IMG/VR virus record: IMGVR_UViG_2695420687_000014
Length of the DNA stretch: 3,488 bases
Strand: one strand, 5' to 3'
Source: a virus
Taxonomy: Duplodnaviria > Heunggongvirae > Uroviricota > Caudoviricetes
The notes under the pieces: generated by a model
What the model saw: the letters and a program-made list of their open reading frames with translations, nothing else
Databases searched by the model: none
What the model was told of the DNA's origin: nothing
Made by a program: the position numbers and the translations under genes
Shown: positions 2,602-3,488 of the stretch, piece after piece
How the letters are laid out: each line of letters opens with the position of its first letter
Position numbering within the stretch: the first letter of the stretch is position 1

Positions 2602-3488
2602 TTTCCGCCTCCAGCATCCCGTCCCCGTTTGGCAGCCAGCGTCCAGCCAGATGCATGCGCATCCCCCGGTTTATCGGCGGTCATACTGTTGCAGTGCCAC
2701 AGCGAGCCCCCCCACGTCACCGTATCGCCGGGGTGGTAGGTTTCACCGGCTCTGAACACTCCGCGGTAGAGCATCACCGGCAGGGAAAATGTTTTTTCCG
2801 TACACTGGCCACTGCTCTGCCGGATCACCACAGAGAACAACCGCTCACCCGTCATACTGACGTCAATATCCGCCACCCCGTCAACCAGGCATTCCCATCC
2901 CCGCATCCCGTGCGTTTTTTCATACGCCCGCCAGAGTCCTCCAAGGTGTGTGGCATACGTGCCCCGGGGAAAGGATTTTTGATCGTCAATGGCGGGGAGC
3001 ACTTCCAGTGCCGTGGCATCACGCCCGTCCTGCGGAGCCGGCAGGGCATTCACCGCCTCCAGAACCGCCTTCCGCAGAACATCGGGATCGTAGTCACGAC
3101 CATCACGCGGAACGGGAATATGGCTTACAGCCTCTTTCACCATCTGCTCAAGCATCGGACGCACATCATCGGGGGTGATACTTTTGCCGTCCGCCGGTAC
3201 CGGAATTCTCCCGACCGCATCATTCACCGCCTGCTTCAGTACTTCCGGATCGTAATCACGACCATCGCGGGGAGCTGGAATATGGCCCACTGCCTCCGCC
3301 ACCATCTGCTCAAGCATCGGACGCACATCATCGGGGGTGATACTTTTGCCGTCCGCCGGTACCGGAATATTCGCAACCGCATCATTCACCGCCTGCTGCA
3401 GTACATCCGGATCATAATCACGACCATCACGCGGTACCGAAATGGCCCCCACAGCGTCATCCACCATCGCCTGCAGAACCGGACGCAC
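2598..3488 (-). CDS. Repeat-containing phage structural protein of unknown function (C-terminal 296 codons; 5' end beyond the window)
   Basis: Open frame runs from the window edge at 3488 to TGA at 2600-2598. The leading M in the ORF track is a GTG at the edge, not a real start. Residues 1-170 are tandem repeats alternating IPVPADGKSITPDDVRPMLEQMVAEAVGH and IPAPRDGRDYDPEVLKQAVNDAVGR type units. Residues 171-296 form a non-repetitive Cys/Trp-containing domain. Translationally coupled to the connector gene. Function not recognised. Confidence 0.8.
   Translation of the reverse strand: MRPVLQAMVDDAVGAISVPRDGRDYDPDVLQQAVNDAVANIPVPADGKSITPDDVRPMLEQMVAEAVGHIPAPRDGRDYDPEVLKQAVNDAVGRIPVPADGKSITPDDVRPMLEQMVKEAVSHIPVPRDGRDYDPDVLRKAVLEAVNALPAPQDGRDATALEVLPAIDDQKSFPRGTYATHLGGLWRAYEKTHGMRGWECLVDGVADIDVSMTGERLFSVVIRQSSGQCTEKTFSLPVMLYRGVFRAGETYHPGDTVTWGGSLWHCNSMTADKPGDAHASGWTLAAKRGRDAGGGK
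2979..3488 (-). repeat. In-frame tandem coding repeats, 162-nt (54-aa) period, each built from two ~27-aa half-units; array continues past the window edge
   Basis: DNA 3138-3206 is identical to 3300-3368 (69 nt, offset 162); flanking repeat sequence is similar but diverged. At protein level there are about 6.5 half-units in the window, the last one (LPAPQDGRDATALEVLPAIDDQ) degenerate. Confidence 0.85.

Follow-up and report, generated by a model that had tools for sequence, protein, structure and literature searches.

The window, i.e. the whole stretch of 3,488 nucleotides of viral DNA that was analysed, comes from a lambdoid, Stx-phage-like E. coli prophage with an HK97-type head, of which it represents the part for head completion and tail. 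All genes described here are read from the minus strand. In the order of this strand they are the 3′ part of a gene designated X (2598-3488; 296 codons and a stop codon, with the 5′ end beyond the window), a gp6-like head-tail adaptor (Ad1; 2275-2601) whose start overlaps the stop codon of X, a head closure gene (1915-2265), an HK97 gp10-like gene (1472-1918), the tail terminator (1131-1475), a major tail protein with an Ig domain (348-1064) and the tail assembly chaperone (1-342). Gene X was taken from the list of open reading frames and matches PHROG 2271/1289 (E-values of 1e-180 and 1e-153), and the adaptor is assigned by Pfam (PF05135) and PHROG 40. In full relatives, the small and then the large terminase subunit are followed by a 645-aa gene annotated as major capsid protein, a small ORF, the portal gene (454 aa), X and the adaptor. 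The full-length X proteins of relatives comprise 353 aa in the locus L001 and 407 aa in JLK-2012.

At the other end of the window, positions 1-38, where the chaperone gene ends, are unaligned in the closest relatives, to which 3450 of the 3488 bases can be aligned. The chaperone reading frame has 113 aa in the window vs. 124 aa in L001. Between the tail terminator and the major tail genes we observed a GC-rich hairpin followed by a T run (CCCGCCGCGTGCGGG TTTTTT; 1087-1101, minus strand). An isrK-like Rfam match at 1081-1184 overlaps this hairpin; with 18.2 bits against a gathering score of 50 and an E-value of 0.87 it is most likely a chance match.

DNA related to the window was found in 1,246-1,293 of 5,426 complete E. 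coli genomes, at a median of 4 and up to 24-25 places per genome, and gene X itself is carried by 1246 of the 5426 with roughly 8,300 copies. Related DNA is also present in 91 phage records, mostly of Stx1a-, Stx2a- and Stx2c-converting phages and of Marienburgvirus JLK-2012. No paper on gene X, its repeats or the G tract described below was found in the literature, and an NCBIfam scan gave nothing meaningful. Commonly, X is mislabelled as 'portal protein', owing to in-frame fusions with the portal gene in many genomes. X lies directly after the gene of the HK97-family portal (PF04860), and the two are fused in about 30% of the sampled loci and also in distant lineages. However, the portal domain is absent from the X reading frame of the window according to a Pfam scan, which gave a sub-threshold CBM_5_12 match only, and in relatives PF04860 matches only the upstream 454-aa ORF or the fused part. 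The identification of X as a portal protein is therefore ruled out; PF04860 belongs to the separate upstream ORF and the label was carried over from the fusions.

In the window, gene X consists of a repeat array followed by a conserved all-beta C-terminal domain with a CBM5/12-like module (2601-3008). The TRF program reports a single array with a period of 162 nt (3064-3468, 2.5 copies, 84% matches), and all 53 repeated 20-mers of the window recur at the offset of 162. As 162 nt correspond to 54 codons, the units follow each other head-to-tail in one reading frame. By the codon register, a diverged partial unit (VRPVLQAMVDDAVGAISVPR; 3429-3488), which equals codons 35-54 of the unit, is followed by full unit 1 (DGRDYDP...IPAPR; 3267-3428), full unit 2 (3105-3266) and a degenerate half-unit (DGRDYDPDVLRKAVLEAVNALPAPQ; 3024-3104) that runs into the C-terminal domain. 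The array thus has two full units and partial units at its ends.

The original prediction was that a segment of 69 nt is perfectly duplicated at an offset of 162 nt, while the neighbouring repeat sequence has diverged, also at synonymous positions. Direct comparison confirmed both parts. Positions 3138-3206 in unit 2 and 3300-3368 in unit 1 are identical base for base, and the match ends at once at both edges without extension by a single base. The block comprises 23 whole codons of the coding (minus-strand) frame, IPVPADGKSITPDDVRPMLEQMV, which are codons 21-43 of each unit; we refer to it as the core. Outside the core, 17 of the 162 bases differ between unit 1 and unit 2, and 14 codons are affected, none of them inside the block. 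An alignment of the units, proposed as a check together with the original prediction, divides these codons evenly into seven synonymous and seven non-synonymous differences. Ten of the 17 mismatches are located in the right flank (R segment). In unit 1 this segment is formed by the last 11 codons (R1, AEAVGHIPAPR; 3267-3299), which carry an unusual haplotype and set a sharp 3′ edge to the block. The left edge is marked by codons 18-20, which read VAN vs. VGR.

Given 17 mismatches, the probability of 69 nt or more in a row without a mismatch is P = 7.6e-4 under uniform placement and P = 4.5e-4 if the placement is weighted by the per-site diversity of the family. By the method of Nei and Gojobori, the flanks have a pS of 0.356 (dS about 0.48) and a pN of 0.128 (dN 0.14). 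The core has no difference at 15.7 synonymous sites (dS 0), for which P is about 1.0e-3 given the pS of the flanks. From the probabilities of the run and of the synonymous sites it follows that the clustering of mismatches outside the core is real and non-random. Since dS in the flanks is about 0.48 the units are old, and the core is anomalously alike between two old units. Recent duplication had been named as one possible source of the identity. A recent duplication of the whole unit does not fit these values and is excluded for the array of the window by the contrast between flanks and core.

Conservation of the encoded peptide could in principle produce such a pattern, if purifying selection keeps the 23 residues invariant and the missing synonymous differences are due to luck or codon preference. 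The peptide is indeed the same in both units and well conserved in E. coli alleles. However, the core lacks synonymous differences to a degree that is hardly expected by chance (P = 1e-3, see above), many of its third-codon positions are polymorphic in the family, with mismatch frequencies between arrays of up to 0.53, and 39 core haplotypes were counted in the family, so that this explanation is highly improbable. A function at the level of nucleotides, for which the block would be conserved as an element of RNA or DNA (for example a structured RNA, a regulatory site inside the gene or an antisense gene), has an even poorer standing and its probability is close to negligible. Nothing specific speaks for it apart from a long antisense ORF (310-340 aa) that spans the array in relatives. 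The Rfam search returned no match within the array, even at E-values up to 1, and no promoter-like or terminator-like site was found there. The per-site diversity of the core is 0.078 vs. 0.092 in each flank. In the population, core and flanks thus vary to about the same degree, so that the identity is not due to constraint on the nucleotides, and in both nearest alleles (L005 and L007, see below) the identity is broken. An RNA element was accordingly dismissed on the blank Rfam result and the diversity of the core. The antisense ORFs are located opposite X through the array, e.g. at 5974-6906 in L001 and at 5974-6996 in L002, and we read them as a by-product of the repeated codons and not as genes.

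The comparison with other arrays of the family reveals a different behaviour of core and flanks. Within one array, the cores of the first and the last unit differ by 0.048 per site, whereas values of 0.075 and 0.078 were obtained for orthologous units of other arrays; permutation P values for this likeness within arrays overstate the independence of the data, as the compared loci are akin to one another. In the left flank the effect is absent (0.075 within the array vs. 0.069 for orthologous first units) and in the right flank it is marginal to intermediate (0.086 vs. 0.116 and 0.089). Identical cores are found in 31% of adjacent unit pairs vs. 8% of pairs from different arrays. Cores that resemble their paralogues more than their orthologues are, as we read these sequence comparisons, a mark of gene conversion or of unequal exchange. 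The longest perfect run at the offset of 162 ranges from 31 to 327 nt over 58 distinct arrays, among which the 69-nt run of the window is the 19th from the bottom. An identity of 69 nt is thus not unusual within this gene family.

Near-identical repeats of X are also found outside E. coli: in Pantoea with a period of 162 nt and 100% identity, in Caballeronia with 324 nt and in Erwinia with 132 nt. The X gene of a Clostridia MAG (L119) contains a DNA repeat of 108 nt that is 93.5% identical. In the X homologue of Phytobacter diazotrophicus (L084) we noted a run of unknown residues (XXX) inside an array of near-identical 54-codon repeats; it stems from either masking or a gap in the assembly of the repeats.

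Copy number was compared in a set of mutually related loci, consisting of the best 80 of 341 IMG/VR matches, two annotated loci and the window, with units counted by motif or by protein length, two counts that disagree slightly. In this set, 27-28 loci have two full units, 42-44 have three, eight have four and two have six. One full unit is present in the Stx1a phage L164. Six metagenome-derived X proteins of 245 aa have no unit at all; these could be assembly collapses. X proteins with 0, 1, 2, 3, 4 and 6 units have lengths of 245, 299, 353, 407, 461 and 569 aa, respectively, and among the E. coli-type alleles the changes in array length are multiples of 162 nt without exception. The expected copy-number polymorphism among relatives was therefore found, in steps of 162 nt. 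Four pairs of alleles are exactly one unit apart. For the pair L011 and L049 the exchange interval maps to unit phase 31-137 and for L024 and L074 to 75-137, so that both intervals cover the core. The intervals of the other two pairs (156-176 and 156-193) lie at the unit boundary. With lengths of 106, 62, 20 and 37 nt, all four map to blocks that are identical between units, in line with unequal recombination in the array.

Repeats of this kind are prone to errors of short-read assembly, and an array that was collapsed, expanded or put together chimerically by the assembler has to be considered. The window ends inside the array, most homologues in the databases are 'partial' proteins at the ends of contigs of 1.6-7 kb, and the exact allele is absent from complete E. 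coli genomes, where the best match reaches 95.4%. Nevertheless, an artefact is very unlikely. The IMG/VR sequences L005 and L007, listed under different source genome ids, agree with the window in the two-unit structure and in their flank haplotypes. Usual reads are longer than the perfect repeat of 69 nt, and each of its copies has unique flanks. The same architecture, with 1-3 units, is present in complete genomes and phage records. The warning that copy number may be wrong thus hardly applies to the window itself; it names a real risk for relatives with perfect repeats of 162-327 nt. That the region often breaks assemblies is apparent from the many homologues that are partial at contig ends.

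The nearest alleles of the window give a closer view of its own lineage. Over 891 nt, L005 and L007 each show three substitutions relative to the window and no indel. Three of the six sites that vary among the three sequences fall in the core of unit 1. In L007 the core changes are ATC to CTC and CCC to CCG, and both states are present in the common core haplotype 1; in L005 the change is ATC to ATT, a state present in core haplotype 2. Perfect identity is lost in both alleles, whose longest perfect runs measure 33 and 39 nt. The most parsimonious reading of these sequences is that perfect identity of the cores was ancestral to the window, L005 and L007 and that it is eroding, by mutation or by patches from other copies. 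As the identity would then be ancestral, nothing shows that conversion is 'ongoing' here. Hence, from the suggested ongoing gene conversion between units, the conversion is backed by the likeness of cores throughout the family, whereas its present activity in the lineage of the window is not.

The flanks of unit 1 require a separate consideration. No R segment of the other sampled arrays comes closer to R1 than 7 differences in 33 nt, whereas the left flanks of both units (L1 and L2), the core and R2 are each matched with 0-1 differences in other sampled arrays. As R1 is unlike every sampled R segment, part of the contrast between core and flanks probably results from the import of a divergent R1 patch. 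This leads to the main rival explanation, which is likewise one of recombination. Here, both cores would simply retain the commonest and perhaps ancestral haplotype, the flanks, chiefly R1, would be imported from a divergent allele of another prophage, and conversion between units would not be needed. Core haplotype 0, to which both cores of the window belong, is in fact the most frequent one in the sample (38 units outside the window, L005 and L007, or 30 if distinct arrays are counted once) and is found together with many different flanks. The isolated position of R1, the concentration of mismatches in the R segment and the exchange between prophages that is evident in L001 and L163 (see below) point in the same direction. 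Against this stands the likeness of cores within arrays throughout the family, which still requires homogenisation between units. In addition, a donor for R1 was not found in the sample, and the left edge of the block at codons 18-20 is left unexplained by an import of R1. We regard this course of events as possible but fairly unlikely as the full account of the block.

The reading that we prefer, and consider rather probable, is that the block represents the core of two in-frame 162-nt units of the X stalk that have been homogenised by recombination, i.e. by concerted evolution. Homologous recombination would be the agent, acting by short-tract gene conversion and by unequal crossover between misaligned units. 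Exchange may also take place with the several related prophage copies that reside in most carrier genomes. A possible instance are L001 and L163, two prophages of E. coli NMBU-W12E19 (NZ_CP042892.1). Their X genes (1062 nt) are 100% identical and their downstream modules have the same protein accessions, while 141 differing sites are listed between the two loci, of which at least the first 80 fall in the capsid and portal region upstream. Identical X genes next to differing upstream genes indicate exchange or copying between co-resident prophages at this scale. RecA-dependent recombination in E. coli needs roughly 25-30 bp of homology, and 69 nt are within the range used by Red/RecET-type systems of phages. 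Since the block is longer than this minimal homology, it may be both the product of an exchange and the substrate for the next change by plus or minus 162 nt. Each such exchange would alter the protein by exactly 54 residues, which correspond to two modules of about 27 aa with a helix and a proline-rich loop.

In-frame coding repeats under concerted evolution are well known from the alpha C and Rib proteins of group B streptococci and from the collagen-like repeats in tail-fibre and neck genes of phages. Gene X resembles such VNTR-type repeats of surface and fibre proteins in its head-to-tail, in-frame units, in the changes of copy number by whole units, in the likeness within arrays and in the exchange at identical blocks. 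In contrast to them, homogenisation in X peaks in the middle 69 nt of the unit and is weak in the left flank, the units are mosaics, and the gene is a phage gene adjacent to the portal gene. Altogether, the behaviour of the repeats is textbook and the feature is an ordinary example of a known phenomenon.

There are nevertheless some practical consequences. The array, combined with the multi-copy nature of the prophage family, leads to the breaking of short-read E. coli assemblies at X and to inconsistent names for the gene, such as 'portal protein', 'frameshifted' pseudogene and 'gp6-like connector'. The steps of 162 nt could act as a size marker for the typing of long-tailed Stx and lambdoid prophages, while homogenisation limits the use of gene X as a phylogenetic marker. 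The more interesting loose ends are the portal-linked X family itself and the G5/G6 tract that fuses X to the portal gene.

In related loci (L001, at about 5805-5812, and L006) a G tract is located 26 nt upstream of the portal stop codon, in a part of the genome outside the window. With the sequence A-G5 the portal gene ends in ..GILRK* and overlaps the start of X in an ATGA, whereas A-G6 joins portal and X in a full in-frame fusion of 807-1023 aa. The G6 state was found in 25 of 82 loci (about 30%), i.e. in the best 80 of 341 IMG/VR matches and two others. It is not a random sequencing error, because the state of the tract follows the lineages of the arrays. PGAP labels the G5 form as a 'frameshifted' pseudogene. 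We also considered programmed frameshifting at the tract; read in the portal frame, its sequence departs from the canonical X XXY YYZ heptamer. Portal and X are fused independently in P0260 and in a Brevundimonas locus. Judging by the sizes and positions of neighbouring ORFs, Pseudomonas, Burkholderiales, Alphaproteobacteria and the Clostridia MAG likewise have X between the portal gene and the adaptor. The fusion of X in frame to the C-terminus of the portal protein argues for a location at the portal vertex, on either side of the capsid, as far as gene structure can indicate this.

The X family comprises 5,403 clusters at 50% identity (E-values up to 1e-3), and the proteins listed or examined range from fragments of 123 aa to 1237 aa; their stalks contain between 0 and about 23 repeats, each of roughly 27 aa. 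It has no functional annotation of its own; the names 'portal protein' and 'gp6-like head-tail connector protein' were apparently taken from neighbouring or fused genes. The build of X is modular and consists of N-terminal helices, a repeat stalk of variable length and the conserved C-terminal beta domain. An AF2 prediction with an alignment of 32 sequences gave a pLDDT of 77-94 for the C-terminal 130 residues. For the stalk, which was predicted as a monomer, the pLDDT is about 40, and helices of 13-17 residues alternate with loops of about 12 residues. The single-sequence AF2 model of the full-length relative P0116 reached a mean pLDDT of 40.9.

In fold comparisons of the predicted structure, the C-terminal domain resembles CBM5/12 modules, which bind chitin, and tail-fibre tips of phages. 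Comparators are tail-fibre tips (PDB 9rkv, 8fqc, 8kec and 9b45) and the baseplate protein All3316 of the Anabaena contractile injection system (CIS; 7b5h). The Pfam match to PF02839 (CBM_5_12) is below threshold, with 19.4 bits vs. a gathering score of 26.2 and an E-value of 0.0011, and a search of solved structures by sequence gave nothing significant for X, with a CBM-like motif in All3316 as best hit (E-value of 0.45). Unlike a single CBM5/12 module the domain is larger, with about 130 residues, and glycan binding is putative. In BFVD, the domain matches many viral proteins with collagen repeats. With these fibre proteins, annotated as 'Collagen triple helix repeat', X would share the fold of its C-terminal domain, but the stalk of X in the window is without Gly-X-Y and is made of helices and loops instead, according to a low-confidence model. 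The X homologue of the Clostridia MAG (L119, 5638-6441) was observed to have a collagen-like Gly-X-Y stalk in front of the same C-terminal domain and no helix-PxP repeats. That X is an elongated, fibre-like protein is plausible on these models. The description of the product as a fibre, which had been part of the original prediction, thus gains plausibility from domain architecture and fold matches and is still unproven.

Extensions of the portal are known from other phages: the portal of P22 has a C-terminal barrel and the minor head protein gp7 of SPP1 is bound to the portal. X is comparable in that it is a helical extension at the C-terminus of the portal, or is encoded by the gene right after it. 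In contrast, no similarity of X in sequence or fold to these proteins was found, and one would not expect a beta domain of carbohydrate-binding type, such as X has, in the interior of a capsid.

The number of repeats probably sets the length of an elongated protein associated with the portal vertex. A more far-reaching picture, which we put forward as conjecture and hold to be improbable in its entirety, is that X represents a large portal-linked family with a stalk and a carbohydrate-binding-like knob, in which the stalk would be tuned in steps of 54 residues by recombination and the attachment to the portal would be switched between separate and fused by the one-base change from G5 to G6. 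If true, many temperate siphophages, the long-tailed Stx phages among them, would have in X an adjustable component of the portal vertex that has so far gone unrecognised.
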